A DNA stretch of 47,982 nucleotides from Clostridia bacterium. Its GTDB lineage: Bacteria > Bacillota > Clostridia > Oscillospirales > Acutalibacteraceae. Positions within the stretch are counted from its first letter, which is position 1, and every line of letters begins with the position of its first letter. Under the pieces are notes generated by a model that was not told the DNA's origin, did no database searches, and worked only from the letters and a program-made list of their open reading frames with translations. This document shows positions 29,850-47,438 of the stretch, piece by piece. The position numbers and the translations under genes are program-made. Where the stretch lies: positions 1 through 47,982 of the forward strand of contig JAFQKX010000008.1 in NCBI GenBank assembly GCA_017414705.1, in the 5' to 3' direction.

Positions 29850-32800
29850 TTATTTGGAGTACAGCTCTGCAGTCTTGAGCAGGTGGGTGTACTTGTCTTT
29901 TGCATCGGCCTGAGCTTTGGCAAACAGCTCTTCTGCGCGATCCGGGAAGGCTCTCATCAGCGAGGAGTAACGAACCTCGTTCTTGATGAATTCCAGATAA
30001 TCGCCGGTGGGCTCTTTGCTGTCGAGCGAGAACGGATTTTCCTTTCTCGGGTCGAAGCGGAAATTGTGCCAGTAGCCGGCAGCAACTGCCAATTTCTCTT
30101 CGGTCATGCTCACACCCATGCCGCCCTTGATACCGTGGTTGATACAGGGAGCATAGCAGATAACGATGGAGGGACCGTTGTAGCTTTCAGCCTCGGTCAT
30201 GGCCTTGATGCACTGATTGTAGTCAGCACCCATGGCGACCTGAGCAACGTACACGTAACCGTAGCTCATAGCGATCGCGGCAAGGTCTTTCTTCTTGACG
30301 CTCTTACCGGCAGCAGCGAACTGTGCGATAGCGCCGGTCGGGGTAGCCTTGGAGGACTGTCCGCCGGTGTTGGAGTAAACCTCGGTGTCAAAGACCAGAA
30401 TGTTGACATCCTGATTCTGAGCCAGAACGTGGTCCACACCGCCGAAGCCGATGTCGTATGCCCAGCCGTCGCCGCCCAGGATCCAAACCGACTTCTTGGC
30501 AAGGTAATCGCTATCGGTCATGATGTCGTCGGCAGCAGCCTTGGCATCACCGCTGAGCTTGGCGCCCTTGATGGCAGCCGTCAGAGCCTTGGCAGCCTCT
30601 GCGTTCTCAGCACCGTTTTCGAAGGTGGAGATCCACTTGGCAGCGGCTTCCTTGACGTCGCCGTCAGCGTTGTCGACCAGCACCTGAGCGTCGCCCAAGA
30701 GACGGTTGCGGATGGCCTTGTTGGCAAGGTTCATACCAAAACCGAACTCGGCGTTGTCCTCAAACAGGGAGTTGGCCCATGCGGGACCGCGGCCCTCTTT
30801 GTTGGTGGTGTACGGAGTGGAGGGTGCGGAGCCGCCCCAGATGGAGGAGCAGCCGGTGGCGTTGGCAATGTACATACGATCACCAAACAGCTGGGTCACC
30901 AGCTTGGCATACGGAGTTTCGCCGCAGCCTGCGCAAGCGCCGGAGAACTCGAGCAGCGGCTGTTTGAACTGGCTGCCCTTGACGGTCTCGGGCTTGAACT
31001 TGGCAGCAACCTCTGCCTTTTCGGGCAGGGTGATGGCATAGTCAAAGTTCTTCTGCTCATCCAACTTGGTCTCGATGGGCTCCATAACCAGAGCCTTTTC
31101 ACCCTTGAAGCCCGGGCAGACGTTGGCGCAAGAGCCGCAGCCGGTGCAGTCCAGAGTGGAGATGACGATGGCGAACTTCATGCCGGGCAGACCGGTCATA
31201 TCCTTCATCTGCATACCGGCGGGAGCGTTTTTGGCTTCCTCTTCGGTCAGAGCAACGGGACGGATGACGGCGTGCGGGCAAACGTAGGAGCAGAAGGAGC
31301 ACTGGATACATTTGTCGGGATTCCAAGCGGGAACGTCCACGGCAATACCGCGCTTCTCGAAAGCGGAGGAGCCCAGCGGGAAGGTGCCGTCCTCGGCGCC
31401 TGCAAAGGCGGAAACCGGCAGCTTGTCACCCTGCTGTGCGTTGATGGGACGCTGAATGTTGTTGATGTAATCCACCAACACCTTGTTGTCGCCGGTGGCG
31501 GGAGCAACGGCAACCTCGCCGGTAGCCTTAGCCCAATCAGCGGGGACGTTGACCTTACGGAAGCCGTTGATACCGCGCTCGATCGCAGCGTGGTTCATAG
31601 CAACGATCTTTTCACCCTTCTTGGCGTAGGAGCGGGTTGCAGCATCCTTCATCAACTGAACAGCCTTGTCGGCAGGGATGATCTTGGACAGAGCAAAGAA
31701 GGCAGCCTGCAGGATGGTGTTGGTGCGTCCGCCCAGACCGATCTCCTTGGCAATGTGAGTTGCGTCGATGACGTAGAAGTTGATCTTGTTCTTTGCAATG
31801 TACTGCTTCATGGAAGCGGGCAGGTGAGCACCCAGCTCTTCATCGCTCCAAGAGCAGTTGAGCAGGAAGGTGCCGCCGACCTTGATGTCCTGAACCATCT
31901 CATACTTATCAACGTAGGAGGGGTTGTGGCAGGCAACGAAGTCTGCCTGATTGATGAGGTAGGTGGACTTGATGGGCTTCTTACCGAAACGCAGGTGAGA
32001 AACGGTGATACCGCCGCTCTTCTTGGAGTCGTAGGAGAAGTAGCCCTGTGCGTACATGTCGGTGTTGTCACCGATGATCTTGATGGAGTTCTTGTTGGCG
32101 CCGACGGTACCGTCCGAGCCCAGACCCCAGAACTTGCAGCTGGTGGTACCCTTGGGAGTGGTGTCGGGATTGACCTTGACCTTCAGGGACAGCTTGGTGA
32201 CGTCGTCTTCGATACCGATGGTGAAGGTCTTCTTGCTCTTGGCAGCCTTCAGGTTGTCGTACACGGCGATGATCTGGCCGGGAGTGGTATCCTTGGAGCC
32301 CAGACCGTAACGGCCGGTGCAAACGGGGATATCAGCAAACTTGCTGTCCTTGAGAGCGGCAAGAACGTCCAGATACAGAGGCTCACCGATGGAGCCGGGC
32401 TCCTTGGTGCGGTCCAGAACGGCGATCTTCTTGACGGTCTTGGGCAGAGCAGCCAACAGATGCTTGGCCGAGAACGGACGGTACAGATGAACCTTGACCA
32501 GACCGACCTTGTTGCCGGCAGCGTTGAGGTAATCAACCGTCTCTTCGATGGTGTCGCAGCCCGAACCCATGGCGATGATGACGTACTCAGCATCCTTTGC
32601 GCCATAGTAGTTGAACAGCTTGTACTTGGTGCCGAGCTTTGCGTTGACCTGAGCCATGTAATCCTCGACAACGCCCACGATGTTCTCATAGTAGGGGTTG
32701 GCGGCTTCCTTGGCCTGGAAGAAGATGTCGGGGTTCTGAGCAGTACCTCTCTGAACGGGATGCTCAGGGTTCAAAGAACGGCGGCGGAATGCGTTGACTG

Positions 32801-33404
32801 CATCGCGATCGAGCATTTCATCCAGATCCTTATAATCCCAAACGGCAACCTTTTGGATCTCGTGGGAGGTACGGAAACCGTCGAAGTAGTGAATGAAGGG
32901 GACGCGGCCCTTAATGGCAGCCAAGTGAGCAACGGCACCCAGGTCCATGACCTCCTGCGGGTTGTTGGAGCACAGCATGGCGCAGCCGGTCTGACGGCAG
33001 GCATAAATGTCGGAGTGATCGCCGAAGATCGACAAAGCGTGACCGGCGATGGCACGGGCAGAAACGTTGATTACGCCCGGCAGCAATTCACCGGCGATCT
33101 TGTACAGGTTGGGGATCATCAGAAGAAGACCCTGAGAAGCGGTGTAGGTGGTGGTCAGAGCACCGGCAGCCAAAGAGCCGTGCACCGCACCGGCGGCACC
33201 TGCCTCAGACTGCATCTCGGAAACCATGACCGGTTGACCGAACAGGTTCTTGGCACCATTGGCAGCCATCTTGTCCGTTTCTTCTGCCATGTTCGACGAC
33301 GGCGTGATCGGGTAGATCGCAGCCACGTCGGTAAAGGCATACGAAACGGTTGCGGCGGCAGTATTGCCGTCCATCGTTTTCATTTTTCTTGCCATTTTTA
33401 CCAT
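29850..33404 (-). CDS. nifJ: Pyruvate:ferredoxin (flavodoxin) oxidoreductase
   Basis: It is a 1184-aa single-chain PFOR. The N-terminus is MKTMDGNTAAATVSYAFTDVAAIYPITPSS. There are two CxxCxxCxxxCP motifs (CIQCSFCSYVCP, CTGCGSCANVCP) and the TPP motif GGDGWAYDIGFGG. An alternative start is 33395. Confidence 0.95.
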   Translation of the reverse strand: MVKMARKMKTMDGNTAAATVSYAFTDVAAIYPITPSSNMAEETDKMAANGAKNLFGQPVMVSEMQSEAGAAGAVHGSLAAGALTTTYTASQGLLLMIPNLYKIAGELLPGVINVSARAIAGHALSIFGDHSDIYACRQTGCAMLCSNNPQEVMDLGAVAHLAAIKGRVPFIHYFDGFRTSHEIQKVAVWDYKDLDEMLDRDAVNAFRRRSLNPEHPVQRGTAQNPDIFFQAKEAANPYYENIVGVVEDYMAQVNAKLGTKYKLFNYYGAKDAEYVIIAMGSGCDTIEETVDYLNAAGNKVGLVKVHLYRPFSAKHLLAALPKTVKKIAVLDRTKEPGSIGEPLYLDVLAALKDSKFADIPVCTGRYGLGSKDTTPGQIIAVYDNLKAAKSKKTFTIGIEDDVTKLSLKVKVNPDTTPKGTTSCKFWGLGSDGTVGANKNSIKIIGDNTDMYAQGYFSYDSKKSGGITVSHLRFGKKPIKSTYLINQADFVACHNPSYVDKYEMVQDIKVGGTFLLNCSWSDEELGAHLPASMKQYIAKNKINFYVIDATHIAKEIGLGGRTNTILQAAFFALSKIIPADKAVQLMKDAATRSYAKKGEKIVAMNHAAIERGINGFRKVNVPADWAKATGEVAVAPATGDNKVLVDYINNIQRPINAQQGDKLPVSAFAGAEDGTFPLGSSAFEKRGIAVDVPAWNPDKCIQCSFCSYVCPHAVIRPVALTEEEAKNAPAGMQMKDMTGLPGMKFAIVISTLDCTGCGSCANVCPGFKGEKALVMEPIETKLDEQKNFDYAITLPEKAEVAAKFKPETVKGSQFKQPLLEFSGACAGCGETPYAKLVTQLFGDRMYIANATGCSSIWGGSAPSTPYTTNKEGRGPAWANSLFEDNAEFGFGMNLANKAIRNRLLGDAQVLVDNADGDVKEAAAKWISTFENGAENAEAAKALTAAIKGAKLSGDAKAAADDIMTDSDYLAKKSVWILGGDGWAYDIGFGGVDHVLAQNQDVNILVFDTEVYSNTGGQSSKATPTGAIAQFAAAGKSVKKKDLAAIAMSYGYVYVAQVAMGADYNQCIKAMTEAESYNGPSIVICYAPCINHGIKGGMGVSMTEEKLAVAAGYWHNFRFDPRKENPFSLDSKEPTGDYLEFIKNEVRYSSLMRAFPDRAEELFAKAQADAKDKYTHLLKTAELYSK

Positions 33405-33536: not shown

Positions 33537-33744
33537 TACAGAAAATCAAAATACTTAAAAATTTTTGTAGAAAAATCAAATGTTTTTTTGCTTTTTTTGG
33601 GCATTTTTCAAAAAAAGGCAAAAAAAGAGCAAAAAACAGAAAATCCGACCGGATTGATCTTTACATTACATAAGTGTAATTCAAAGGGCGCTTAAAAATT
33701 TTTTTGACAAAATACGATTTAGGGGTAGAAAAATGAAAAAAATA

Positions 33745-33753
33745 TGGTATAAT
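33745..33753 (+). promoter_or_regulatory. Extended -10 element (TGgTATAAT) upstream of the LtaS-family gene
   Basis: TGgTATAAT at 33745-33753 has only a weak -35. It lies downstream of the track start at 33733, which supports ATG 33799 as the real start. Confidence 0.4.
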
Positions 33754-33798
33754 CAAAGGTACTTGCGAAAATTTTGTCAAAACAGAGGAGAACGATCT

Positions 33799-36171
33799 AT
33801 GTCTGTAAAGCGGTTTGAAAGTGACCGTGTCATTTTTCTTGATGACGAAAATGAAGTGCAGGAAATCGTATATCAGAAATCAAAACGAAGAGGCCCCGTC
33901 CTCTCCTTTTTGATCGAGCATTATCTGGGTGGCCAACAGCGCAAAGGCGCATTCGTATGGAACGCCGCTTTTTTTGTGTTGTCGGTCATGTTTTTGGAGA
34001 TCTGCATGCAGCTGGTCAGCTTTGGTGAACTGACCGGTGATATCGTGTATCCTATTTTGTTTTCGATTCCCACCGGTATTCTGCTGTCCTTCTTCACCGG
34101 GTTTTTCAATCCCAAGGTCAACGGCATCATCAGCATGGTGCTGACCTTCTTGGTGTGTCTGTACTTTAATATCCAACTGGTATATCAGAGTATTTTCGGC
34201 GACTTTTTGGCATTGGCCGATATGAGTAACGGCGCCGACGCCATTGAAAATTTCTGGGCACAGATGCTGCACGGTATTTGGGAAGCAAAGTGGGAGATTC
34301 TGCTGCTGTTCATTCCCTTCTTTGCCACCATTGCCATCGCCATCTTTAAGCCCATTCGCTTCACCAAAACCTCTTGGATCACCAAGGGTATCAACTTTGC
34401 CGGGCTGTGTGTGCTGCACGTTGTTTGCCTTTTGGCGCTGCTCGTCGGCGGAAAAGGTCCATACACGCCGTGGGACTGCTATACCAACCCCAACACCGCT
34501 ACCAATAACAGTATCGCCGTGCTGGGTGTGCTGACCACCGCGCGTTTGGAGGTACAGACCGTCACGCTGGGACTGTCGGTCACCAATCCCGACGATCTGG
34601 TGCATATCGACGACTCTCATCTGCTGGGCGATCTCGTACAGACCTCTCCCGAGGTCGATACCTCGCCCAACGTCATGGATATCGATTTTGATAAGCTTGC
34701 AGCCGAGGAGACCAATAAGTCCCTCAAGGAAATGCACGAGTATTTCGCGGCACAGACCCCCTCCAGAAAAAATGAATACACCGGCTATTTTGAGGGCTAC
34801 AACCTCATTACCTTCTGCGCCGAGTCCTTCTCCTCGCGTATGATCAATCCGGTGCTGACCCCCACGCTTTATAAGCTTTCGACCGAAGGCTTCGTTTTTA
34901 ACAACTTCTACAACAGCTATCATTCCAACACCACCAACGGCGAATATACCTTTAATATGGGCATTTTCCCCGATCTGTCACGCAGCAAGGCAAACGGCTC
35001 CTTCCGCAAATCTGCCAATAACTACGTGCCGTTCTGCTTGGGCAATATGTTCAAGACCGTCGGTGTGCAGCCGTATGCCTATCACAACTATTACGGTACC
35101 TATTACACTCGCTACCTCTCTCACCCCAATATGGGTTATAAATTCAAAACGCCGGGTGCAGGTCTGAATATCCGCGTGCAGTGGCCCTCCTCCGACCTTG
35201 CCATGATGGAAAAGTCGATCAAGGATTATCTGTCCGCCGATCAGCAGTTCATGGCGTATTATATGACCTTCAGCGGACATTATCAGTACACCTGGAACAA
35301 CCCCATGGCTGCAAAGAACCGCAAGGAGATCAACGAATACTGCAAGGAAAACAACCTTAAGTACAGCGAGACGGTCAAGGCCTTCTTGGCCTGCAACCTG
35401 GAGCTGGAAAAGGCGCTGACCTACCTGATGGAGCAGCTGGAAGAGGCAGGCGTGGCCGAAAAGACGGTCATCGTATTGACCAACGACCACTATCCGTACG
35501 GCCTTAACTCCACGCAGTACAACGAGCTGGCGGGCGAGAAGATCGACACCACCTTTGAGAAATACAAGAACAGCTTTATTTGCTGGAACGGCGGTATGAG
35601 CGAGCCGGTCGTGGTCGATACGCCATGCTGCACCATTGATATTCTGCCCACCCTTCTCAACCTCTTTGGCTTTGAGTACGATTCCCGTCTGCTTATGGGC
35701 CGTGACGTGCTGGATCCCAATTCCTTCCACGTTGCCATTCTCAGCAACCAGAGCTGGATCACCGACAAAGCGAAGTTTGACGCCTCGCGTAACAAGCTGA
35801 CCGTCATCAAAGAAGGAGATGAGACGGTTACCGACGAATATGTACAGGCCATCCAATCGCTGGTCAAAAATAAATTCACCATGTCCACCAAGATCCTCAA
35901 CAAGAACTATTACAAGATCGTGGTGCCCAAGTCGGCTTCGGTGGTGGCTCCTTCCGATAAAAACAATCAAACGGTCACTCCGCAAAAGCCGAACAATACA
36001 ACGAAGCCCAATAACAACAATACGCAAAGCTCGTCGGTCTCGCAGGGTTCATCCGAACCGCCGAGCAGCTCCGAAAATCATGGTGCATCCAGCGAGCCGG
36101 CGACGCCCGGTCAGCCGACTGTATCACAGACCCAGAGCACACCTGCCGGTTTCGAAGACGAACAAGAGTAA
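33799..36171 (+). CDS. LTA synthase-family sulfatase (LtaS/phosphoglycerol-transferase-like), polytopic N-terminus
   Basis: ATG 33799 lies 8 nt after GAGGAG. About 5 TM helices are followed by a sulfatase-type domain (..ITFCAESFSS.., ..HSNTTNGEYTF.., ..LTNDHYPYG..). The C-terminus is a Ser/Asn/Pro-rich tail. Confidence 0.8.
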   Translation: MSVKRFESDRVIFLDDENEVQEIVYQKSKRRGPVLSFLIEHYLGGQQRKGAFVWNAAFFVLSVMFLEICMQLVSFGELTGDIVYPILFSIPTGILLSFFTGFFNPKVNGIISMVLTFLVCLYFNIQLVYQSIFGDFLALADMSNGADAIENFWAQMLHGIWEAKWEILLLFIPFFATIAIAIFKPIRFTKTSWITKGINFAGLCVLHVVCLLALLVGGKGPYTPWDCYTNPNTATNNSIAVLGVLTTARLEVQTVTLGLSVTNPDDLVHIDDSHLLGDLVQTSPEVDTSPNVMDIDFDKLAAEETNKSLKEMHEYFAAQTPSRKNEYTGYFEGYNLITFCAESFSSRMINPVLTPTLYKLSTEGFVFNNFYNSYHSNTTNGEYTFNMGIFPDLSRSKANGSFRKSANNYVPFCLGNMFKTVGVQPYAYHNYYGTYYTRYLSHPNMGYKFKTPGAGLNIRVQWPSSDLAMMEKSIKDYLSADQQFMAYYMTFSGHYQYTWNNPMAAKNRKEINEYCKENNLKYSETVKAFLACNLELEKALTYLMEQLEEAGVAEKTVIVLTNDHYPYGLNSTQYNELAGEKIDTTFEKYKNSFICWNGGMSEPVVVDTPCCTIDILPTLLNLFGFEYDSRLLMGRDVLDPNSFHVAILSNQSWITDKAKFDASRNKLTVIKEGDETVTDEYVQAIQSLVKNKFTMSTKILNKNYYKIVVPKSASVVAPSDKNNQTVTPQKPNNTTKPNNNNTQSSSVSQGSSEPPSSSENHGASSEPATPGQPTVSQTQSTPAGFEDEQE

Positions 36172-36179: not shown

Positions 36180-36220
36180 CCATCGGTTTTCAAAATCCTG
36201 AAAACCGATGGATTTTTTTC
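36180..36220 (+). terminator. Rho-independent terminator of the LtaS-family gene
   Basis: Stem CCATCGGTTTTC (36180-36191) pairs with GAAAACCGATGG (36200-36211), followed by ATTTTTTT. Confidence 0.8.
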
Positions 36221-36229: not shown

Positions 36230-36280
36230 TTTACAAACGCCGTTATTTTCGGTATAATAAAAGAAACAATTCTATTGTTG
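36230..36280 (+). promoter_or_regulatory. Promoter plus candidate operator of the hydrogenase regulatory module
   Basis: TTTACA (36230-36235), 17-nt spacer, TATAAT (36253-36258). The palindrome AACAAT-TCT-ATTGTT (36265-36279) sits at or just after the predicted transcription start. Confidence 0.5.
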
Positions 36281-36298
36281 AACGGAGAATGGATGATT

Positions 36299-36655
36299 AT
36301 GAAGATATCGAAGGTTGCTCAATTGCTCAATGCGCAGGTCATCTGCGGAGAAGAATTGCTCGACAACGAGGTGGAGACCGCCTGCGGTGCCGATATGATG
36401 AGTGACGTGCTGGCGTTTGTAAAGGATCGCGCGCTGCTGCTGACCGGTCTGGTCAATCCGCAGGTGGTGCGCACCGCCGAAATGATGGACATTCGCTGCA
36501 TCGCCTTTGTGCGCGGCAAGCAGCCCAATGATATGATCATTGAGCTGGCAAAGGAGTTGTCCATCGTGCTGCTGACCACCGAGGAACGCTTGTACGCCGC
36601 CTGCGGTATTTTGTACAGCGCGGGACTCAATCCCGACGGAGGAATCAGATCATGA
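36299..36655 (+). CDS. DRTGG-domain protein
   Basis: ATG 36299 lies 10 nt after ACGGAGA. The segment ..ACGADMMSDVLAFVKDRALLLTGLVNPQVVRTAEMMDIRCIAFVRGKQP.. is the DRTGG pattern. The upstream part of the 278-aa track ORF is an out-of-frame overlap with the preceding gene. Confidence 0.75.
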   Translation: MKISKVAQLLNAQVICGEELLDNEVETACGADMMSDVLAFVKDRALLLTGLVNPQVVRTAEMMDIRCIAFVRGKQPNDMIIELAKELSIVLLTTEERLYAACGILYSAGLNPDGGIRS

Positions 36656-37086
36656 GTGAGCCGTTGCGTTATACCTATCCCGTCAACGGCGATGATTTTA
36701 TGTCGGCGGGCGGTGTTTCCGCCGTGGTCAAAAAGACCTTGCGCGAGCTTGGCTTTGACAAGGATATCATCCGCCGCACCGCCATCGCTATGTACGAGGG
36801 CGAGATCAATATGGTCATCCACGCCAACGGAGGCGTGGTAGACGTCGAGATCTATCCTGACCGTATCGAGGTCGCGCTCAAGGATACCGGACCGGGTATT
36901 GCCGACGTGGAGCTGGCCATGTCCGACGGTTATTCTACTGCGCCCGACAATGTACGAAGCTTGGGCTTTGGCGCAGGAATGGGCCTGCCCAATATCAAAA
37001 AATATTCCGATGAGATGCGCATCGAAACCCAGGTCGGGGTGGGCACCACCGTCTATCTGACCATCTACACCAAGCCCAAGGCTTGA
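36652..37086 (+). CDS. Anti-sigma-factor-type GHKL ATPase / Ser-protein-kinase-like protein (SpoIIAB/RsbW-like)
   Basis: It has an ATGA overlap with the DRTGG gene. The protein is 144 aa with E..NMVIHA (N-box-like), DTGPGI (G1) and GFGAGMGLPN (G2). Confidence 0.7.
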   Translation: MSEPLRYTYPVNGDDFMSAGGVSAVVKKTLRELGFDKDIIRRTAIAMYEGEINMVIHANGGVVDVEIYPDRIEVALKDTGPGIADVELAMSDGYSTAPDNVRSLGFGAGMGLPNIKKYSDEMRIETQVGVGTTVYLTIYTKPKA

Positions 37087-37124
37087 CCGTATCCATTTCA
37101 TTATTTCAGACAGGAGTGATCCCC

Positions 37125-38444
37125 ATGGAGCAAAATACGTTTCATTCCGTCACCCTGATGCCGGACGCCTGCAAGGGCTGTATCAGCTGTATGAAACGCT
37201 GCCCCACCGAAGCCATTCGCGTGCGCGGCGGCAAGGCTACCATCATTTCCGAGCGCTGTATTGATTGCGGCGAGTGCATTCGTATTTGCCCCTCGCACGC
37301 CAAGCGCGCCGTCACCGACGGCTATGAGCAGTTAGAACGCTTTCGTTGGAAGATCGCGCTGCCCGCGCCCTCCTTCTACGGTCAGTTCAGCGGCATCGAC
37401 GATATCAATTATATTTTGACCGGACTCAAGCACATCGGCTTTGACGATGTGTTCGAGGTCTCGCGCGCTGCCGAGATCGTCAGCCTGTTCTCGCGCAAGT
37501 CGCTTGCCATGCTTAAGGATACCATGACCGGTCCCGTCATCAGCTCGGCGTGTCCCGCCGTGGTGCGCCTGATCAAGATCCGCTTTCCGGCCTTGTGTGC
37601 CAACGTGTTGCCCATCAACGAGCCCATCCATATTGCCGCCCAACTTGCCAAGCAGGAGGCGATGCAAAAAACGGGACTCAAGGAAGAGGAGATCGGTGTT
37701 TTCTTCATCACGCCTTGCCCTGCCAAGGTGACCTCTGCCAAGTATCCCGTCGGCTCAGAACGAACGTATATCGATGGCACCCTTTCCGCCACCGATACAT
37801 ATATGAAAATGCTCTCGGCACTCAAAAACATCAAGGAGCCCGAAAATTTGATGGAATCCGGCATCGTCGGCATCAATTGGGCCAACAGCGGCGGTGAAGC
37901 TGCGGGACTGTTGTTCGATAACTATATCTCTGCCGACGGCATCGAAAACGTTATCAAGGTGCTGGAGGAGGTCGAGGACGAAAAGCTCAACGATATCGAC
38001 TTCGTCGAGCTCAACGCCTGCCCGGGCGGCTGCGTGGGCGGTGTGCTGAATGTCGCCAACGGCTACGTAGCGCGTGCGCGCATCAAGACGCTGCGCAAGT
38101 ACCTGCCGCTGACCAAATCCAAGCCGGTCGAGCAGGAGGAGCAGAACGCTATCCTATTCTGGGAAAACAATCTGGAATATCAGGCAATCTATAAATTGGA
38201 TGATGATATGGCGGTCGCCATGGATAAAATGAAGCAGATCGATCAGATCAAAAACTCTCTGCCGGGGCTGGATTGCGGCTCCTGCGGCGCGCCTACCTGC
38301 CACGCCTTTGCCGAGGATGTGGTGTGCGGACTTGCCAATGAGCACGACTGCATCATCCGTCTGCGTGATCGTATGAGCAAGAGTGCGCCCGAAGTCATTC
38401 CCGCACCCTTCCGTACCAATGAAAAGGAGTCTGAAAAGCAATGA
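37125..38444 (+). CDS. [FeFe]-hydrogenase-like protein with altered H-cluster motifs (putative sensory/regulatory paralogue)
   Basis: ATG 37125 lies 8 nt after AGGAG. It has two CxxCxxCxxxCP motifs. The H-domain motifs are SSACPAV, TPCPAKVTS and ELNACPGGCVGGVLN. There is an extra C-terminal LDCGSCGAPTCHAF motif. Confidence 0.8.
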   Translation: MEQNTFHSVTLMPDACKGCISCMKRCPTEAIRVRGGKATIISERCIDCGECIRICPSHAKRAVTDGYEQLERFRWKIALPAPSFYGQFSGIDDINYILTGLKHIGFDDVFEVSRAAEIVSLFSRKSLAMLKDTMTGPVISSACPAVVRLIKIRFPALCANVLPINEPIHIAAQLAKQEAMQKTGLKEEEIGVFFITPCPAKVTSAKYPVGSERTYIDGTLSATDTYMKMLSALKNIKEPENLMESGIVGINWANSGGEAAGLLFDNYISADGIENVIKVLEEVEDEKLNDIDFVELNACPGGCVGGVLNVANGYVARARIKTLRKYLPLTKSKPVEQEEQNAILFWENNLEYQAIYKLDDDMAVAMDKMKQIDQIKNSLPGLDCGSCGAPTCHAFAEDVVCGLANEHDCIIRLRDRMSKSAPEVIPAPFRTNEKESEKQ

Positions 38445-38773
38445 CCGACCGAGATCTGGCAAAAGCACTGAATCTGACCGTCTTTCACGAGGGAGAGTCA
38501 CGCGAGGTCTGCACCGGCTATTGCGGCGATCTGCTCAGCTGGGTCATGGGCCGCGCCCCCGTGGAAAGTGCTTGGTTTACCGTAATGAACAACAATAACG
38601 TGGCTGCAGTAGCGGTTCTGCGCGAGATGGCCTGCGTCATTCTCACGCAAGGAGTGCAGCCGGATGCCATGCTGCTGGCGCGGATGAAAAGTGAGGACAT
38701 CTCTCTGTACGGCAGTGCCGAGGACGCCTATACCTTGGCGGTCAAGACCGGCACGCTGCTGGCAGAGGCATGA
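38441..38773 (+). CDS. DRTGG-domain protein (second copy)
   Basis: It has an ATGA overlap with the upstream gene. The segment ..YCGDLLSWVMGRAPVESAWFTVMNNNNVAAVAVLREMACVILTQGVQP.. is DRTGG-like. Confidence 0.65.
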   Translation: MTDRDLAKALNLTVFHEGESREVCTGYCGDLLSWVMGRAPVESAWFTVMNNNNVAAVAVLREMACVILTQGVQPDAMLLARMKSEDISLYGSAEDAYTLAVKTGTLLAEA

Positions 38774-38820
38774 TGCTTCCAATACAGTAATAAACTTGTA
38801 ACGAAAGGGCAGGTGAGGAT

Positions 38821-39543
38821 ATGGACGGAATTTATTACGATTTCCATATGCACTCCTGCCTTTCTCCGTGCTCCTCGGACGATATGACCCCCAACGATCT
38901 GGTGGGTATGGCTATGCTGGGCGGCTTGAACGCCATCGCATTGACCGACCATAATTCCTGCCGCAACGTGCCGGCGGCTGCCATTGCTGCCGAGCGGGCA
39001 GGGCTGATCTTTGTGCCGGGTATGGAATTGGAGACCTCGGAGGCCATTCACGTGGTCTGTTTATTCCGCGAGGTCGCACAGGCAATGGCTTTTTCCGACG
39101 AGGTCTACGCTGCGCTGCCGCCCATCAAAAACCGGCCCGAGATCTACGGTAATCAGCTGATCCTCAATGAGCTTGACGAGGAGATCGGCAGGGAAGAGTA
39201 TCTGCTGGTCAACTCAACTGCGATTGGGTTGTATGATGTCCCGCCCCTGTGTAAGCAATACGGCGGCATTGCCATTCTCGCTCATATTGACCGTCATTCC
39301 AACGGCGTATTGGGAATTTTGGGCGATATCACCCCCGATATGGGATATCACCTTGCCGAGGTTTCTCAAAATGCATCGGCAGCAGACTATGCGGCACGAT
39401 TTCCTTTTTTGCACTTTATCAGTGACTCGGATTCGCACGATCTGCTGAGCATCGCAGAGCCGTCAGAACGCAATTTTTTACAGGGGAATTTTCATTCTGC
39501 GGCAGACGTTGTCGATTCTTTGGAAAAATTGTTATTTTTATGA
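38821..39543 (+). CDS. PHP-domain phosphoesterase
   Basis: It has the N-terminal YYDFHMHSCLSPCS and ..IALTDHNS.. and ..AHIDR.. His/Asp metal motifs characteristic of PHP. Confidence 0.8.
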   Translation: MDGIYYDFHMHSCLSPCSSDDMTPNDLVGMAMLGGLNAIALTDHNSCRNVPAAAIAAERAGLIFVPGMELETSEAIHVVCLFREVAQAMAFSDEVYAALPPIKNRPEIYGNQLILNELDEEIGREEYLLVNSTAIGLYDVPPLCKQYGGIAILAHIDRHSNGVLGILGDITPDMGYHLAEVSQNASAADYAARFPFLHFISDSDSHDLLSIAEPSERNFLQGNFHSAADVVDSLEKLLFL

Positions 39544-39583
39544 CAAAAAAATTGATTTTGCTATAGAAATATCAAAACAAATA

Positions 39584-39623
39584 TGTTATAATGCACTCTG
39601 GATGCGAGCGCATCCTATTGTTG
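39584..39623 (+). promoter_or_regulatory. Internal promoter and leader elements upstream of hydC
   Basis: The extended -10 is TGtTATAAT (39584-39592). The palindrome GGATGCG-AG-CGCATCC is at 39600-39615. The 9-mer CTATTGTTG (39615-39623) is also present at 36272-36280. Confidence 0.4.
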
Positions 39624-39648: not shown

Positions 39649-40146
39649 ATGAAAAACAAGCTTGAAACGATCCCTTTTAAGGACACTCCCGAGCAAAAGG
39701 CACAGCTTGAACAGATCATCCAGGATTACAAGGATGTTCCCGGCGCTTTGGTTCAGGTCCTCAAAAAGGCACAGGAAGTATACGGATATCTGCCGCTTGA
39801 GGTGCAGATCACGGTGGCGGAAGGCCTCGGGATCTCTCTGGAGGAGGTCTACGGTGTTGTGACTTTCTATTCCTTCTTCTCCATCAACCCCAAGGGACAG
39901 TACGAGATCTCGGTGTGTCTGGGTACCGCTTGCTACGTCAAGGGTGCCGGCGACGTTATCAACAAGATCTCCGACGTGTTGGGAATCAAGGATGGCGGTT
40001 GCACGCCCGACGGTAAGTTCTCTCTGCGCGCCTGCCGTTGCATCGGCGCTTGCGGTCTGGCTCCCGTTCTGACCATCAACGATGATGTTTACGGCCGTCT
40101 GACCACCGATGAGACCGTCAAGGTCTTGCAGAAATACATGGCCTGA
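39649..40146 (+). CDS. hydC: NuoE-like [2Fe-2S] subunit of NAD(H)-linked [FeFe] hydrogenase (HydC)
   Basis: RBS AAGGAGG. Cys motifs CLGTAC and CRCIGACGLAP are typical of NuoE/HydC thioredoxin-like 2Fe-2S proteins. Confidence 0.9.
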   Translation: MKNKLETIPFKDTPEQKAQLEQIIQDYKDVPGALVQVLKKAQEVYGYLPLEVQITVAEGLGISLEEVYGVVTFYSFFSINPKGQYEISVCLGTACYVKGAGDVINKISDVLGIKDGGCTPDGKFSLRACRCIGACGLAPVLTINDDVYGRLTTDETVKVLQKYMA

Positions 40147-40151: not shown

Positions 40152-40697
40152 ATGCAGGAACTTTCCCTTAATATTCTCGACGTTGCACAGAACTCGGTTC
40201 GTGCAGGGGCTACTCTGATTGAGATCAGTACGCTGGAGAGCACGGCGGACCACCGCCTGACGGTCACCATTGCCGACAACGGCTGCGGAATGACCGAGCA
40301 GCAGGTGCAGCAGGTCACCGACCCGTTCTTTACCTCCCGCACCACCCGCAAGGTGGGACTCGGGGTGCCGCTCTTCAAAATGATGAGTGAGCTGACCGGC
40401 GGCTCCTTTCAAATCACCTCTCAGGTGGGGCAGGGGACCACGGTGCAGGCCGTCTTTTGTACCGACAGCATCGACTGTCTGCCGCTCGGGAATATGACCG
40501 ATACCATCTTCTCCTTGGTCACTATGAATTGCACCATCGATTTTGTTTATCGTGATCGCTTGGATGAGCGGGAATTCGTATTCGATACCCGCGAGATCCG
40601 TGAGATCTTGGGCGAAGTTCCCTTCAATACTCCCGAAATCGCAACGTTTTTGCGGGAGTATCTTCAAGAAAATTCAATTCGTATCCATGACAACTGA
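40152..40697 (+). CDS. Stand-alone histidine-kinase-like (GHKL) ATPase-domain protein
   Basis: It has an N-box (LNILDVAQNSVRA), G1 (DNGCGM) and G2 (GLGVPLF) and no DHp, sensor or TM region. It sits between hydC and the ferredoxin/hydB genes. Confidence 0.75.
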   Translation: MQELSLNILDVAQNSVRAGATLIEISTLESTADHRLTVTIADNGCGMTEQQVQQVTDPFFTSRTTRKVGLGVPLFKMMSELTGGSFQITSQVGQGTTVQAVFCTDSIDCLPLGNMTDTIFSLVTMNCTIDFVYRDRLDEREFVFDTREIREILGEVPFNTPEIATFLREYLQENSIRIHDN

Positions 40698-40713: not shown

Positions 40714-41085
40714 ATGAAAACATTGGAAGAACTCAAGGCTTTGAAAGCAAAGGCTCTGCAAAACATGGGTATCCGTGACGATCAGGCCGCTACCACCCGT
40801 ATCGTGGTAGGTATGGCAACCTGCGGCATCGCCGCCGGTGCCAGACCCGTCCTGACCGCCTTTACCGAAGAGGTTGCCAAGCGTCAGCTGCAGGATGTCG
40901 CCGTCTCTCAGACCGGCTGCATCGGCATCTGCCAGTATGAACCGGTGGTCGAGGTTTTCCGCACCGGCGAAGAAAAGGTCACCTACGTTAAAATGACCGC
41001 CGATAAGGTCGCCCGCATCGTCGCTGAGCATATCGTCAACGGCAACGTTGTCACCGAATACACCATTGGTGCCTGCACCAAATAA
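40714..41085 (+). CDS. Thioredoxin-like (2Fe-2S) ferredoxin-domain protein
   Basis: ATG 40714 lies after the upstream stop at 40695-40697, with AAAGGA 11 nt upstream. Motifs are ..VGMATCGIAAG.. and ..GCIGICQYEP... Confidence 0.8.
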   Translation: MKTLEELKALKAKALQNMGIRDDQAATTRIVVGMATCGIAAGARPVLTAFTEEVAKRQLQDVAVSQTGCIGICQYEPVVEVFRTGEEKVTYVKMTADKVARIVAEHIVNGNVVTEYTIGACTK

Positions 41086-41102: not shown

Positions 41103-42893
41103 ATGTATCGTGCTCATGTATTAGTTTGCGGCGGTACCGGATGTACGTCCTCCGGCAGCGCCAAGATCATTACCGCGTTTGAAAGCGAACTCGAGCAAGC
41201 CAATCTCGGTAATGAAGTCAAGGTCATCCGCACCGGCTGTTTCGGTCTGTGCGCCGAAGGCCCCATCGTTATCGTCTATCCCGAAGGCTGCTTCTATTCC
41301 CGCGTTCAGCCCGAGGACGTCGCTGAGATCGTTGCCGAGCATTTGGTCAAGGGCCGTCCCGTCAAGCGTCTTCTGTACAAAGAGACGGTTGTGGATGAAA
41401 CCACTATCAAATCGCTCAACCACACCGGCTTCTATGAGAAGCAGCATCGTGTTGCCCTCAAGAACTGCGGTGTTATCGACCCCGAAAATATCGAAGAATA
41501 TATTGCCTACGACGGTTATCAGGCATTGGCAAAGTGCTTGACCGAGTACACCCCCGAGCAGGTCATCCAGATCATCAAGGATTCCGGTCTGCGCGGACGC
41601 GGCGGCGCAGGCTTCCCCACCGGTCTCAAGTGGTCCTTTGCGGCTGCCAATAAGGCCGATCAGAAGTATGTCTGCTGCAACGCCGACGAAGGCGACCCCG
41701 GTGCATTTATGGACCGTTCCATTTTGGAAGGCGACCCCCACGCACTGCTTGAGGCTATGGCCATTGCCGGCTATGCCATCGGTGCTACCAAGGGTTACGT
41801 TTACATCCGTGCCGAGTATCCCATCGCTGTCAAGCGTTTGGAGATCGCCATTGCACAGGCAAAAGAATACGGCTTGATGGGCAAGAACATTTTGTCCTCC
41901 GGCTTTGACTTTGATCTGGAGATCCGTCTGGGCGCAGGCGCCTTCGTCTGCGGCGAAGAGACTGCTCTGATGACCTCCATCGAAGGTAAGCGCGGCGAGC
42001 CCAGACCCAGACCTCCGTTCCCCGCAGTCAAGGGTCTGTTCCAAAAGCCCACCGTTCTCAACAACGTTGAGACCTACGCCAACATCGCCCAGATCATCCT
42101 GAACGGTCCCGAATGGTTCACCGCTATGGGTACCGAGAAGAGCAAGGGCACCAAGGTGTTCGCGCTCGGCGGCAAGATCAACAACACCGGCCTTGTCGAG
42201 GTTCCTATGGGGACCACCCTGCGTGAGGTCGTTGAAGACATCGGCGGCGGCATTCCCAATGGCAAAAAGTTCAAGGCTGCTCAGACCGGCGGTCCTTCCG
42301 GCGGTTGTATCCCTGCGCACCTCATTGATACTCCCATCGACTATGACAACCTGCTCGCCATCGGCTCCATGATGGGCTCCGGCGGTCTGATCGTTATGGA
42401 CGAGGATAACTGTATGGTCGACATCGCCAAGTTCTTCTTGGAGTTCACCGTCGAAGAATCCTGCGGTAAGTGCACTCCCTGCCGTATCGGTACCAAGCGT
42501 CTGTACGAGATGCTCGAGAAGATCACCAAGGGCGAAGGCACGCTGGAAGACCTCGACAAGATGGAAGCTCTGTGCTACTACATCAAAGAGAACTCCCTGT
42601 GCGGCTTGGGTCAGACGGCTCCCAACCCCGTTCTGTCCACCCTGCGCTACTTCCGCGATGAGTACGTTGCTCACGTCGTGGACAAGAAGTGCCCCGCAGG
42701 CGTTTGTAAGGATCTGTTGCAGTACTCCATCATCGAGGACAAGTGCAAGGGCTGTACCGCTTGTGCCAGAAAGTGCCCCGTGGGTGCGATCTCCGGCTCT
42801 GTCAAGAATCCTCACGTCATTGATACTGCAAAATGTATCAAGTGCGGCGCTTGTATCGAAACCTGCAAGTTCGACGCCATCATTCGTAAATAA
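41103..42893 (+). CDS. hydB: NuoF-like flavoprotein subunit of NAD(H)-linked [FeFe] hydrogenase (HydB)
   Basis: It has an N-terminal 2Fe-2S (VCGGTGC..CFGLCAEGP), an FMN site GRGGAGFPTGLKW, CNADEGDPGAF, ESCGKCTPCRIG and two C-terminal 4Fe-4S motifs. Confidence 0.93.
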   Translation: MYRAHVLVCGGTGCTSSGSAKIITAFESELEQANLGNEVKVIRTGCFGLCAEGPIVIVYPEGCFYSRVQPEDVAEIVAEHLVKGRPVKRLLYKETVVDETTIKSLNHTGFYEKQHRVALKNCGVIDPENIEEYIAYDGYQALAKCLTEYTPEQVIQIIKDSGLRGRGGAGFPTGLKWSFAAANKADQKYVCCNADEGDPGAFMDRSILEGDPHALLEAMAIAGYAIGATKGYVYIRAEYPIAVKRLEIAIAQAKEYGLMGKNILSSGFDFDLEIRLGAGAFVCGEETALMTSIEGKRGEPRPRPPFPAVKGLFQKPTVLNNVETYANIAQIILNGPEWFTAMGTEKSKGTKVFALGGKINNTGLVEVPMGTTLREVVEDIGGGIPNGKKFKAAQTGGPSGGCIPAHLIDTPIDYDNLLAIGSMMGSGGLIVMDEDNCMVDIAKFFLEFTVEESCGKCTPCRIGTKRLYEMLEKITKGEGTLEDLDKMEALCYYIKENSLCGLGQTAPNPVLSTLRYFRDEYVAHVVDKKCPAGVCKDLLQYSIIEDKCKGCTACARKCPVGAISGSVKNPHVIDTAKCIKCGACIETCKFDAIIRK

Positions 42894-42907: not shown

Positions 42908-44659
42908 ATGGAAAACATGCTTAATATCAAAATTAACGGCAAAGATTATTCCGTACCCGCGGGTACCACCATTCTCGATGCCTGCCGTATGAACGGTATC
43001 TATATTCCCACGCTGTGCTACCTCAAGGACATCAACGCCATCGGCGCTTGCCGTATCTGCGTGGTCGAGGTCAAGGGCGCCAGAAGCCTGGTTGCCGCCT
43101 GCGTGTATCCCATCGACCGCGAGGGAACCGAGATCTTCACCAATTCTCCCGCCGTCATCAAATCCAGAAAGACCACCTTGGAGCTCATCCTCTCCAACCA
43201 CGAGAGAAAGTGCCTGTCCTGCGTGCGTTCCACCAACTGCGAGCTGCAGAAGCTCTGCAACGAGTACGGTGTAGACGAGTCCATGTTCGAAGGCGCAAAA
43301 ACTCCGTCCGAGATCGATGACTCCGCCATCCATATGTATCGCGACAACAGCAAGTGCATTCTCTGCCGCCGCTGCGTCGCCGCTTGCCAGAATCAGGATG
43401 TCGCCGTCATCGGTGCCAACGAGCGTGGCTTTGCCACCAACATCGGCAGTGCCTTCCAGGCAGGTCTGGGCGACGTTGCCTGCATCAACTGCGGACAGTG
43501 CATCAGCGTCTGTCCCGTCGGCGCTCTGTCCGAAAAGGACGAGACCGATAAGGTCTTTGCAGCGCTCAACGATCCCACTAAGCACGTCATCGTGCAGACC
43601 GCTCCCTCGGTGCGTGTCGGCTTGGGTGAAGAGTTCGGTATGCCCATGGGCACCATCGTCACCGGCAAAATGGTCACCGCACTCAAGATGCTCGGCTTCG
43701 ACGGCGTGTTCGATACCAACTTCTCTGCTGACCTCACCATCATGGAAGAGGCCACCGAGTTCTTGGATCGTTACACCAAGAAAGAGAATCTGCCGCTCAT
43801 CACCTCCTGCTCGCCCGGATGGGTCAAATATTGCGAGCATTACTTCCCCGATATGATTCCCAATCTGTCCTCCTGCAAATCTCCGCAGGGAATGTTCGGC
43901 GCCGTCGCCAAGACCTATTATGCCGAAAAGATGGGTATCGATCCCAAGGATATCTTCGTCGTCAGCGTTATGCCCTGTACCGCCAAGAAGTTCGAGGCTT
44001 CCCGCCACGAGCAGGCAGCGGTCAAGGGTCTTCCCGACATTGACGTTGCCATCACCGTGCGTGAGCTTGCCCGTATGATCAAAAAGTCCGGCCTGCTCTT
44101 CACCGAGCTGCCCGACTCCGAGTTTGATTCTCCGTTCGGACTTGCTTCCGGTGCCGGTACCATCTTCGGTGCCACCGGCGGTGTTATGGAAGCTGCTCTG
44201 CGTACCGCCCATGCCGTCCTCACCGGCGAAGAACTGGAAGGCAAGGCTATGGAGCTCACCGCAGTTCGCGGCGTCGAGGGTGTCAAGGAAGCTACCTTCA
44301 ACATTGCCGGCAACGAGATCCGCGTGGCAGTTGCCTCCGGTCTGGCCAACGCCAGAAAAGTCCTCGAGATGGTCAAGAACGGCGAAAAGCAGTTCGACTT
44401 CATCGAGATCATGGCTTGCCCCGGCGGCTGTGTCAACGGCGGCGGTCAGCCCATCGTTCCCTCCGCTGTGCGTAACGTTGTGGATATCCGCAAGGTCCGC
44501 GCCGCAGCCCTGTATCAAGACGATGAAAATCTGCCGGTTCGTAAGTCCCATCAGAACCCCGACATCACCCGCATCTATGACGAGTATTTCGGAAAGCCGG
44601 GCAGCCACAAGGCGCACGACATTCTGCATACTACCTATACTGCGCGTGTCAAGTATTAA
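42908..44659 (+). CDS. hydA: [FeFe] hydrogenase catalytic subunit, multimeric NuoG-like (group A3-type) HydA
   Basis: It has an N-terminal 2Fe-2S plus accessory FeS Cys motifs and H-cluster motifs ITSCSPGW, MPCTAKKFE and EIMACPGGCVNGGGQP. RBS AAGGAGG. Confidence 0.93.
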   Translation: MENMLNIKINGKDYSVPAGTTILDACRMNGIYIPTLCYLKDINAIGACRICVVEVKGARSLVAACVYPIDREGTEIFTNSPAVIKSRKTTLELILSNHERKCLSCVRSTNCELQKLCNEYGVDESMFEGAKTPSEIDDSAIHMYRDNSKCILCRRCVAACQNQDVAVIGANERGFATNIGSAFQAGLGDVACINCGQCISVCPVGALSEKDETDKVFAALNDPTKHVIVQTAPSVRVGLGEEFGMPMGTIVTGKMVTALKMLGFDGVFDTNFSADLTIMEEATEFLDRYTKKENLPLITSCSPGWVKYCEHYFPDMIPNLSSCKSPQGMFGAVAKTYYAEKMGIDPKDIFVVSVMPCTAKKFEASRHEQAAVKGLPDIDVAITVRELARMIKKSGLLFTELPDSEFDSPFGLASGAGTIFGATGGVMEAALRTAHAVLTGEELEGKAMELTAVRGVEGVKEATFNIAGNEIRVAVASGLANARKVLEMVKNGEKQFDFIEIMACPGGCVNGGGQPIVPSAVRNVVDIRKVRAAALYQDDENLPVRKSHQNPDITRIYDEYFGKPGSHKAHDILHTTYTARVKY

Positions 44660-44663: not shown

Positions 44664-44701
44664 AAATCGGGATCATCCTCGGATGATCCCGATTTTTTTT
44701 G
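44664..44701 (+). terminator. Rho-independent terminator of the hydrogenase operon
   Basis: Stem AAATCGGGATCATCC pairs with GGATGATCCCGATTT, followed by an 8-T run. Confidence 0.85.
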
Positions 44702-44791: not shown

Positions 44792-44867
44792 GCTACTGTG
44801 GCTCAGTTGGTAGAGCAGCTGATTCGTAATCAGCAGGTCGCCGGTTCGAGTCCGGCCAGTAGCTCCA
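44792..44867 (+). tRNA. tRNA-Thr (anticodon CGT), with encoded CCA
   Basis: Hand-folded cloverleaf: acceptor GCTACTG/CAGTAGC, D stem GCTC/GAGC, anticodon stem GCTGA/TCAGC with loop TTCGTAA, T stem GCCGG/CCGGC with loop TTCGAGT, discriminator T plus CCA. Confidence 0.92.
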
Positions 44868-44980
44868 GAAGAAAAAACGTCCAGTTTTTTGGGCGTTTTT
44901 TTCATTTTTAAGCCGTTTTTTAGCCCAAAAATGGCTTTTTTTATGCCAAACGGGCAAGTTTGACTAAAAAACGCCCTTGA

Positions 44981-45047: not shown

Positions 45048-45076
45048 AAAAAATTATTTCAATACCGTAAAAAGTA

Positions 45077-45085
45077 TGGTATAAT
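45077..45085 (+). promoter_or_regulatory. Extended -10 (TGgTATAAT) upstream of the KilA-N gene
   Basis: TGGTATAAT at 45077-45085 lies about 25 nt before ATG 45110. Confidence 0.4.
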
Positions 45086-47436: not shown

Positions 47437-47438
47437 TT

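Follow-up and report, generated by a model that had tools for sequence, protein, structure and literature searches.

Group D [FeFe]-hydrogenases, also designated M2e, are a named and biochemically characterised class for which TamHydS of Thermoanaerobacter mathranii serves as the model (PMC8163306, PMC10407848, PMC13104023). The class has been considered sensory because of its closeness to kinases and to the bifurcating hydrogenase HydABC (PMC3561251). Carere et al. 2012 (PMC3561251) reported M2e genes next to those of bifurcating hydrogenases in C. bescii, C. saccharolyticus, C. thermocellum, C. phytofermentans, Caldanaerobacter, and Thermoanaerobacter, and the placement upstream of bifurcating HydABC and beside a kinase, from which the label "sensory" derives, is already published (PMC3561251, PMC3608648, PMC8163306). 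The same arrangement in all Thermoanaerobacter strains is described by Verbeke et al. 2013, who credit this organisation to the survey of Calusinska et al. 2010. The window analysed here, the whole stretch of 47,982 nucleotides from contig JAFQKX010000008.1 of a Clostridia bacterium, carries an ordinary new copy of this known, deeply conserved gene cluster. In it, a predicted group D hydrogenase (HydS) is embedded in a module of five genes with two DRTGG-domain proteins (DRTGG-1 and DRTGG-2), a SpoIIAB/RsbW-type ATPase (GHKL-1), and a PHP-family phosphoesterase. Nothing new is learned from this locus about the hydrogenase itself. New here are the conservation of the five-gene order, the ten-gene order found in distant lineages, the paralogy of the two DRTGG proteins with their invariant Ser and Thr, a DRTGG-kinase fusion, and the resemblance of the PHP protein to other phosphoesterases. 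The first-pass annotation of this DNA, made from the letters alone, missed both the named class and its published link to HydABC.

TamHydS is a slow, CO-tolerant enzyme with a relatively high affinity for H2 that catalyses reversible H+/H2 interconversion (PMC8163306), and H2 induces a change in its secondary structure (PMC8163306; PMC13104023). According to a 2026 study, its N-terminal clusters are reduced by H2 and its C-terminal cluster is not, making signalling via the redox state of the latter unlikely (PMC13104023). Land et al. ask how the TamHydS signal is transduced and use the regulatory [NiFe]-hydrogenase as a conceptual model for the enzyme (PMC8163306). The open literature searched contained no signalling mechanism for group D and no discussion of DRTGG or PHP partners. 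Searches pairing DRTGG with hydrogenase returned irrelevant papers only, and those pairing anti-sigma factors or phosphorylation with HydS returned no mechanism, in line with the earlier statement that no biochemical role had been assigned to the DRTGG/GHKL/PHP combination. A table of the Rex regulon lists Tsac_1856 as a "PHP domain protein".

Based on overall identity and hallmark residues, HydS is a predicted group D (M2e) [FeFe]-hydrogenase, of the same class as TamHydS. Pairwise alignment of the two proteins showed approximately 54% identity over the full length; the TamHydS protein was rebuilt from machine-read coding DNA in the supplement of PMC13104023, which contains reading errors, so that a few residues may be wrong, and its residue numbers agree with the published C20, A137, S249, E252, D265, E289, and C379. 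An Ala at the position of CpI C299 together with Ser or Thr at that of M353 are criteria for group D (PMC8163306, PMC10407848), as are the proton-path residues specific to the group (PMC10407848). In HydS, A142 occupies the position of the proton-relay Cys, CpI C299, within SSA142-C143-P, and T196 that of M353, within IT196-P-C198. The alternative proton path of group D, formed in TamHydS by S249, E252, D265, and E289, corresponds to S255, E258, D271, and E295. None of these residues varies among the twelve homologues aligned in A1, to which statements on HydS invariance refer. The H-cluster cysteines C143, C198, C299, and C303 (CpI C300, C355, C499, and C503) are likewise invariant and aligned with the motifs of HydA, the catalytic hydrogenase encoded in the same window. 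The N-terminal F-domain (Fer4_10, Fer4_9, and Fer4 matches at residues 10-59) contains two [4Fe-4S] motifs of the form CxxCxxCxxxCP, in which C26, C45, C48, C51, and C55 are invariant and C16, C19, and C22 are conserved in at least 90% of the sequences. Two invariant lysines near these clusters, K37 and K60, match lysines discussed for TamHydS. HydS is thereby predicted to be a complete and cofactor-competent group D hydrogenase. The idea that it might be a decayed pseudo-paralogue was rejected, as every cofactor ligand is invariant.

The first reading of the locus had proposed a sensor-type [FeFe]-hydrogenase with Ala in place of the relay Cys and no PAS domain, in agreement with Pfam, the alignment, and the TamHydS residues. 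The motif differences it had listed between HydS and HydA all appear in the BLASTP alignment of the two proteins (24% identity), as SSACPAV against TSCSPGW, TPCPAKV against MPCTAKK, and NACPGGCVGG against MACPGGCVNGGGQP. The additional C-terminal CxxCxxxxC it had noted is present but incomplete, the full motif being Cx2Cx4Cx16C, formed by C384, C387, C392, and C409 and flanked by D383 and D408, all invariant. Pfam detected no PAS domain in HydS, which places it in group D and not in group C.

Comparison with TamHydS showed the same architecture of two N-terminal [4Fe-4S] motifs, an H-domain, and a C-terminal Cx2Cx4Cx16C motif, the same Ala at CpI C299, a hydroxyl residue at M353 and the group-D proton path, a match of D383/C384, D408/C409, K37, and K60 to residues discussed for that enzyme, and the same ten-gene neighbourhood in Thermoanaerobacter. 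The two differ in the L2 and L3 motifs (TPCPAK and NACPGGC in HydS; SPCAAK and LACIGGC in TamHydS) and in their hosts, since the window belongs to a mesophile-type organism with 53% GC, with relatives among Oscillospiraceae, Ruminococcaceae, and Clostridia, and its HydS is known from sequence alone. The group C (M2f) enzymes, such as T. maritima HydS, R. albus HydS, and T. saccharolyticum HfsB, share with HydS the absence of the proton-relay Cys and a C-terminal four-Cys motif; low activity, proposed H2 sensing, and frequent location beside other hydrogenases are further group C features that recall it. However, group C is associated with a PAS domain and a PP2C-type Ser/Thr phosphatase, sometimes with a kinase and Rex, whereas the window HydS lacks PAS and is accompanied by two DRTGG proteins, an RsbW-like kinase, and PHP. 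The HydS family is large, with at least 8000 matches of the same architecture (approximately 410-475 aa) in each of two protein searches, and no solved structure was found for any group C or D enzyme.

The five genes are co-directional on the + strand (36293-39543), in the order DRTGG-1, GHKL-1, HydS, DRTGG-2, and PHP, between a promoter-like site on the 5' side and hydC-(GHKL2)-hydD-hydB-hydA on the 3' side. The tight packing proposed earlier, with 4-nt ATGA overlaps of DRTGG-1 with GHKL-1 at 36652 and of HydS with DRTGG-2 at 38441, is borne out by the coordinates. The profile searches matched Fe_hyd_lg_C, DRTGG, HATPase_c_2, PHP, and PF04060 as anticipated, with DRTGG-2 falling below the cut-off, and the identity of the module parts is regarded as close to certain. 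As had also been stated, no HTH, sigma factor, receiver, or DHp domain was detected by Pfam in the ten cluster proteins, nor did any of them match PAS, PP2C/SpoIIE, or STAS.

Conservation of the module was assessed by a scan of one genome per species, from which the 80 best-scoring loci (HydS identity 51-62%) were taken; gene order was read by tblastn with the ten window proteins, and loci with enough flank were considered evaluable. All 80 belong to one clade, with titles referring to Oscillospiraceae, Ruminococcaceae, Acutalibacteraceae, Ruminococcus, and unclassified Clostridia, and including Harryflintia, Acutalibacter, and Caproiciproducens. The five-gene order was intact in 72 of the 75 evaluable loci, the exceptions being L019, L046, and L048, and the arrangement is therefore not due to chance. 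Outside this clade, the identical ten-gene order was found in Thermoanaerobacter, Caldicellulosiruptor bescii, Coprothermobacter, and Thermoanaerobacterium. The module has thus been inherited as a unit in at least two phyla and in several classes of bacteria. Its position relative to the bifurcating hydrogenase genes is less constant. Among 66 evaluable loci (including L081-L083), hydC-GHKL2-hydD-hydB-hydA lies co-directionally downstream in 35 and divergently upstream in 11, whereas in 20 it is found on neither flank for at least 3 kb. The first-pass annotation had placed the module directly upstream of hydCBA; the conserved gene order upholds this as a common arrangement, though not an obligatory one, since the module is unlinked in 20 loci. 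This varying linkage marks the five genes as a unit of their own. Clustering of the open reading frames (ORFs) of 83 loci revealed no recurrent transcription factor, sigma factor, or receiver near the module, and the only additional neighbours to recur were SerC/SerA-type housekeeping genes, seen in no more than 15 of the 83.

Two variants of the locus were observed among the distant relatives. A Peptococcaceae metagenome-assembled genome (L084:7116-9329) carries a minimal trio of DRTGG, HATPase_c_2, and HydS genes, with DRTGG-2, PHP, and hydABC absent within 8 kb, cheW upstream, and a PAS-GGDEF gene downstream; this trio points to DRTGG-kinase-HydS as the core of the module. In Thermoanaerobacter (L081:7412-8203) and Thermoanaerobacterium (L085:6405-7199), an extra ORF of approximately 263 aa with no Pfam match lies immediately 5' of DRTGG-1. 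This ORF, a difference between the thermophile loci and the window, is absent from the window and from the other lineages inspected, and it may be the "AraC family regulator" mentioned by Land et al. beside TamHydS.

The five genes may constitute an accessory module of HydS, through which the H2 or redox state of the hydrogenase would be relayed via the kinase, the DRTGG proteins, and PHP to an output in trans, a reading to which slightly less than an even chance is given. A sensory or regulatory role for HydS itself is considered probable. Alternatively, HydS would be no sensor of H2 at all but a hydrogenase working in low-flux catalysis or electron entry, or a redox sensor for ferredoxin/NADH, whose partners serve the assembly, protection, or repair of HydABC. 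Such a function would suit the reversible H+/H2 interconversion catalysed by TamHydS, the reduction of its N-terminal clusters by H2, by which electrons can leave the protein, and the fact that sensing by group D has only been proposed. However, turnover is slow in the absence of the proton relay, the module stands without adjacent hydABC in 20 of 66 loci, and neither a kinase-type ATPase nor a phosphoesterase is known among the H-cluster maturation factors, which are HydE, HydF, and HydG. A non-sensory HydS is thus regarded as highly improbable.

Among the partners of HydS, GHKL-1 is predicted to be an ATP-competent, SpoIIAB-like kinase. Its match to HATPase_c_2 (39.4 bits against a cut-off of 27.4) is accompanied by similarity to SpoIIAB, the anti-sigma F factor (1til, 2e-7), and to RsbW (6m36, 1.4e-3), the nearest solved structures, both of similar size (approximately 145 aa). 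SpoIIAB and RsbW are also its best NCBIfam matches, far under the equivalog cut-offs, so that GHKL-1 is taken as a relative and not an orthologue of these proteins. Residues E49, N53, and H57 align to the N-box of SpoIIAB, and the motifs D78-x-GPGI, the STAP lid, and GFGAGMGLPN are conserved in 66 sequences.

The two DRTGG proteins appear to be paralogues, being aligned by hhalign over 104 columns with a probability of 98.5% and an E-value of 3.9e-15. DRTGG-1 is well conserved in the related loci, with the motifs ACGxDMMSDVLA and LLTGLxNPQVVRTAEMMD, and the D-L-L-S33 and T47 motifs of DRTGG-2 are common to it. In an alignment of the two paralogues as found in the window and in five distant lineages, the only invariant residues besides the start Met were S35, T49, and A60 in DRTGG-1 numbering, the first two corresponding to S33 and T47 of DRTGG-2. 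When 1.84 billion cluster representatives were searched exhaustively, 1377 relatives of DRTGG-1 were obtained at E <=0.001. One of these, a representative of 270 aa (P0441), joins a DRTGG-1-like domain, in which the conserved Ser and Thr are kept, through a linker of approximately 25 aa to a GHKL-1-like HATPase_c_2 domain. This fusion, together with the 4-nt overlap of the two window genes, argues for a joint function of DRTGG-1 and GHKL-1 as a single unit. Two other candidate DRTGG fusions, with Peptidase_M3 (P0420) and ArgJ (P0387), were rejected, as the domain is partial in them and they look like chimeric gene calls. Structural comparison of DRTGG-1 was less informative: a single-sequence AlphaFold2 model reached a pLDDT of 42 and was unusable, and the sole relevant sequence match among solved structures was a weak one to AF_1212 (2ioj, E 0.1).

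The PHP protein is predicted to be a metal-competent hydrolase, as judged from its ligand positions. In 54 sequences, H9, H11, D43, H44, E69, H77, H155, D204, and H206 are invariant, as is Cys17 within an HSCLSPC motif. Residues 12-21 read H-S-C-L-S-P-C-G-D-x-D, compared with H-S-x-x-S-D-G in TrpH-like enzymes, and Cys50 is conserved in at least 90% of the sequences; this unusual Cys-containing motif might be an extra metal-binding or redox-sensitive site.

From these parts a mechanism can be outlined, of which we infer every signalling step, including the kinase-substrate pairs, the substrate of PHP, and the output. HydS would bind H2 at its intact H-cluster and report the H2 or redox state rather than flux, its turnover being slow, as we propose, because the fast proton path of group A is absent. 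This state would be passed by protein-protein contact to GHKL-1, acting as a SpoIIAB/RsbW-type serine kinase and as one unit with DRTGG-1. One or both DRTGG paralogues would serve as phospho-acceptor or switch, with Ser35/Ser33 and Thr49/Thr47 as candidate sites, and PHP, paired with DRTGG-2, would reset the system by reversing the phosphorylation. The output would affect hydrogen metabolism in trans and have the bifurcating HydABC as its chief target, reached directly at the enzyme or via a regulator whose gene lies elsewhere, with hydCBA transcribed from its own promoter. A trans-acting output is suggested because no regulator gene recurs in the 83 loci and the linkage to hydCBA varies. This specific phospho-relay is put forward tentatively.

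The nearest known logic is that of the partner switches SpoIIAB-SpoIIAA-SpoIIE and RsbW-RsbV-RsbU/P, and the first reading of the locus had already suggested a partner-switch-like control. The module shares with them a stand-alone HATPase_c_2 kinase with the N-box and ATP-lid motifs of SpoIIAB, small single-domain alpha/beta proteins that adjoin the kinase and are translationally coupled, and a potentially reversing hydrolase. The differences are a DRTGG in place of a STAS domain, PHP in place of PP2C, the absence of a sigma factor, and a hydrogenase as input. The RsbW-like kinase speaks for the earlier suggestion, and the absence of STAS and PP2C and a PHP protein whose relatives act on nucleotides, RNA, or DNA speak against it; the likeness is best taken as a functional analogy, with the module not a member of the family. 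An undescribed partner-switching phospho-relay, with DRTGG standing for STAS, PHP for PP2C, and an H2-sensing group D hydrogenase as input, is viewed as unlikely. A true anti-sigma switch would go further, with GHKL-1 sequestering a remote sigma factor, DRTGG acting as anti-anti-sigma, HydS and H2 setting the partner of GHKL-1, and transcription of a hydrogen/redox regulon as output. It would be in keeping with the nearest characterised relatives of GHKL-1, SpoIIAB and RsbW, of the same size of approximately 145 aa, and the frequent separation of the module from hydABC suits a trans-acting output on transcription. Known partner-switch operons, however, usually encode their own sigma factor, no sigma gene is present in the window cluster or recurrent in the 83 loci, and the sequences preceding hydC in relatives resemble sigma-70 promoters that carry Rex-like boxes, making this alternative decidedly unlikely. 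The regulatory [NiFe]-hydrogenase system HoxBC-HoxJ-HoxA of aerobic H2 oxidisers offers another comparison, being a slow, inhibitor-tolerant H2 sensor coupled to a kinase. Its metal site and proteins are unrelated, and its output is that of a two-component system (the histidine kinase HoxJ, with PAS, and HoxA), whereas the window cluster has no DHp, receiver, or HTH domain.

Several points weigh against the relay of an HydS signal through kinase, DRTGG, and PHP. Sensing or regulation is, for every group D hydrogenase, so far only a proposal, and a 2024 Cell paper still calls the group "functionally undefined". The unresponsiveness of the TamHydS C-terminal cluster to H2 (PMC13104023) removes one obvious relay. 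The DRTGG proteins are not STAS, PHP is not PP2C, and there is no sigma factor. The figure of 72 in 75 was drawn from the best loci of a single clade, the wider breadth consisting of five loci inspected singly, and some relatives lack part of the module: L019 and L084 are without DRTGG-2 and PHP, and L046 is without PHP only. In Pta and in CBS-pyrophosphatases, DRTGG domains lie within regulatory regions that respond to ligands, so that ligand binding, and not phosphate acceptance, could be the role of the invariant Ser and Thr.

The fold of PHP adds to these objections. Its AlphaFold2 model (pLDDT 97.2) gave 33 Foldseek matches at E <=0.001, and all 33 are nucleotide- or nucleic-acid-directed PHP enzymes, among them the TrpH-like BAD_1165 (3o0f), RNase AM (7ug9 and 9etk), the pAp phosphatase Cv1693 (2yb1), EndoQ (5zb8), and PHP domains of PolC/PolIII. 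Protein-tyrosine phosphatases of the CpsB/YwqE type are absent from these 33, and histidinol phosphatase appeared only at E 0.04. The best NCBIfam matches, nucleoside bisphosphate phosphatase and RNase RNM, scored 32-47 bits against cut-offs of 350-400. The modelled PHP protein thus seems to resemble nucleotide or nucleic-acid phosphoesterases and not known protein phosphatases, although its substrate cannot be read from the fold, as the Foldseek matches have a TM of approximately 0.6 and identities of 16-20%. This resemblance would suit a different output, in which PHP would hydrolyse a nucleotide messenger or trim RNA, the DRTGG proteins would bind a ligand, and HydS with GHKL-1 would act as the gate, so that control would be exerted through a small molecule or mRNA stability. 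The structural neighbours and the NCBIfam matches, the latter below cut-off, agree with such an output, and DRTGG domains are generally found in ligand-regulated proteins. However, similarity at this level does not give the substrate, no messenger cyclase or synthetase is encoded in the module, the intact SpoIIAB-type kinase motifs of GHKL-1 would be left without an evident role, and PHP is absent from a few relatives that keep the other genes. A nucleotide- or RNA-directed output is therefore considered quite improbable, and the relay from HydS through GHKL-1 and the DRTGG proteins remains the preferred reading.

Downstream of the module, the genes are of the electron-bifurcating HydABC type (group A3), as predicted from their domains. 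HydA has a [2Fe-2S] and multi-[4Fe-4S] N-terminus and a small-subunit domain, HydB is NuoF-like, and HydC is NuoE-like (Pfam). The L1 motif of HydA, near residue 300, is TSCSPGW in place of the textbook TSCCPxW; the HydA1 chain of 7q4v also has TSCSPGW, and 8a6t has TSCCPSW. A second ATPase gene, GHKL-2, lies between hydC and hydD and encodes conserved N, G1, F, and G2 boxes and a conserved C-terminal domain of approximately 80 aa, with no DHp/His domain detected by Pfam. It accompanies hydCBA, its clusters occurring in 39 loci compared with 41 for hydC, and it could be the point of action of the upstream module.

Regarding transcription, the promoter praised in the earlier description (TTTACA-17-TATAAT) is indeed the best match of the region, with 11 of 12 positions, and the corresponding regions 5' of DRTGG-1 in relatives show an enrichment of -10-like k-mers. 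Expression of the sensor module from this plain sigma-70-type promoter looks constitutive. In relatives, the median gap between PHP and hydC is 284 nt, which fits the window spacer of 105 nt carrying a promoter-like site of its own. Rex-like boxes (<=2 mismatches, within <=260 nt 5' of hydC) were found in 16 of 46 relatives, against a background of 1.1% of windows, and upstream of DRTGG-1 in 8 of 81; the half-site ATTGTTAA was present upstream of hydC in 11/46 compared with 3/415. This enrichment suggests that hydCBA is Rex-controlled in many relatives, with Rex encoded elsewhere, and no rex gene was seen among the window ORFs scanned. The Rex-like box of the window itself (TTGTTATTTTTATGACAA, 39529-39546) has 3 mismatches and is not significant alone. 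A Rex operator in the window was rejected, since matches with 3 mismatches occur about as often as expected at random (5 against 5.1). A perfect palindrome, AACAATTCTATTGTT (36267-36281), separates the -10 element of P1 from the DRTGG-1 ribosome-binding site; it is a candidate operator, although relatives showed no enrichment of a corresponding k-mer.

Fermentative anaerobes of gut, rumen, and thermophilic habitats very commonly carry group D hydrogenases, which are thought to let cells sense H2, a key intermediate of anaerobic food webs and methane formation. The comparative work fixes the set of partners (two paralogous DRTGG proteins, a SpoIIAB-like kinase, and PHP), names candidate residues (Ser35/Thr49 in DRTGG-1 and Ser33/Thr47 in DRTGG-2), and identifies genetically tractable hosts with an identical cluster, among them T. 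saccharolyticum, Thermoanaerobacter, C. bescii, and C. thermocellum around Cthe_0335, making the signalling question directly testable. If true, a DRTGG/kinase/PHP relay would be the first molecular route by which H2 sensing governs the hydrogen metabolism of fermenting Clostridia and related anaerobes. The features of the locus are listed in Table 1.

Table 1. Predicted features of the HydS module, the downstream hyd genes, and their boundaries, in window coordinates.
Feature	Position	Strand	Details
Sulfatase-family gene, upstream neighbour	33733-36171		Sulfatase domain
Terminator-like hairpin and T-run	36180..36211	+	13-bp stem, 6 GC pairs; closes the sulfatase-family gene before it; marks where the module begins on the 5' side
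P1, sigma-70-type promoter-like site for the five-gene module	36230..36258	+	TTTACA-17-TATAAT; 11/12 positions, best match of the region; predicted
DRTGG-1	36293/36299-36655	+	118-120 aa; ATG at 36293 or 36299; GGAGA ribosome-binding site 36284-36288; Pfam DRTGG 8.6e-8, above curated cut-off
GHKL-1, SpoIIAB/RsbW-type serine-kinase / anti-sigma-like ATPase	36652-37086	+	144 aa; HATPase_c_2 7.3e-10 and HATPase_c 5.7e-10, both above cut-off
HydS, group D (M2e) putative sensory [FeFe]-hydrogenase	37125-38444	+	439 aa; Fe_hyd_lg_C 6.3e-31; PF04060 1.3e-11; two Fer4 motifs
DRTGG-2	38441-38773	+	110 aa; Pfam DRTGG 2.4e-4, below cut-off; homology to DRTGG-1 by hhalign
PHP-family metal-dependent phosphoesterase	38821-39543	+	240 aa; Pfam PHP 2.1e-7
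PHP-hydC spacer	39529..39592	+	Weak Rex-like box (39529-39546) and P2 (39564-39592)
P2, promoter-like site	39564-39592	+	TAGAAA-17-(TG)TATAAT, extended -10 element; predicted
hydC, NuoE-like [2Fe-2S] subunit	39649..40146	+	2Fe-2S_thioredx 1.6e-49
GHKL-2, histidine-kinase-type catalytic (CA) domain protein	40152..40697	+	HATPase_c 2.4e-16
hydD-like small [2Fe-2S] ferredoxin	40714..41085	+	NCBIfam 2Fe-2S ferredoxin 3.2e-13; weak 2Fe-2S_thioredx match
hydB, NuoF-like FMN/NADH subunit	41103..42893	+	Complex1_51K 3.3e-47; NADH_4Fe-4S 3.9e-36
hydA, catalytic group A [FeFe]-hydrogenase, bifurcating type	42908..44659	+	Fe_hyd_lg_C 1.7e-103; Fe_hyd_SSU; best solved structure HydA1 7q4v, 2.4e-215
Strong intrinsic terminator closing the hyd unit	44664..44695	+	14-bp stem followed by T8

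Beyond the cluster, a tRNA-Thr gene (44792-44867) lies directly 3' of the hydA terminator and is followed, within 44792-47982, by a low-GC block (0.44) that encodes KilA-N, Peptidase_M78/ImmA-type, XRE-type HTH repressor, and HTH_11 proteins. This block looks like a mobile element or prophage remnant at the tRNA-Thr, and its HTH genes are outside the hydrogenase cluster. On the other side, approximately 3 kb 5' of the module, a pyruvate:ferredoxin oxidoreductase gene of 1184 aa (29850-33404, - strand) was read from the ORF translation alone; its product would be the likely source of the reduced ferredoxin used by HydABC.

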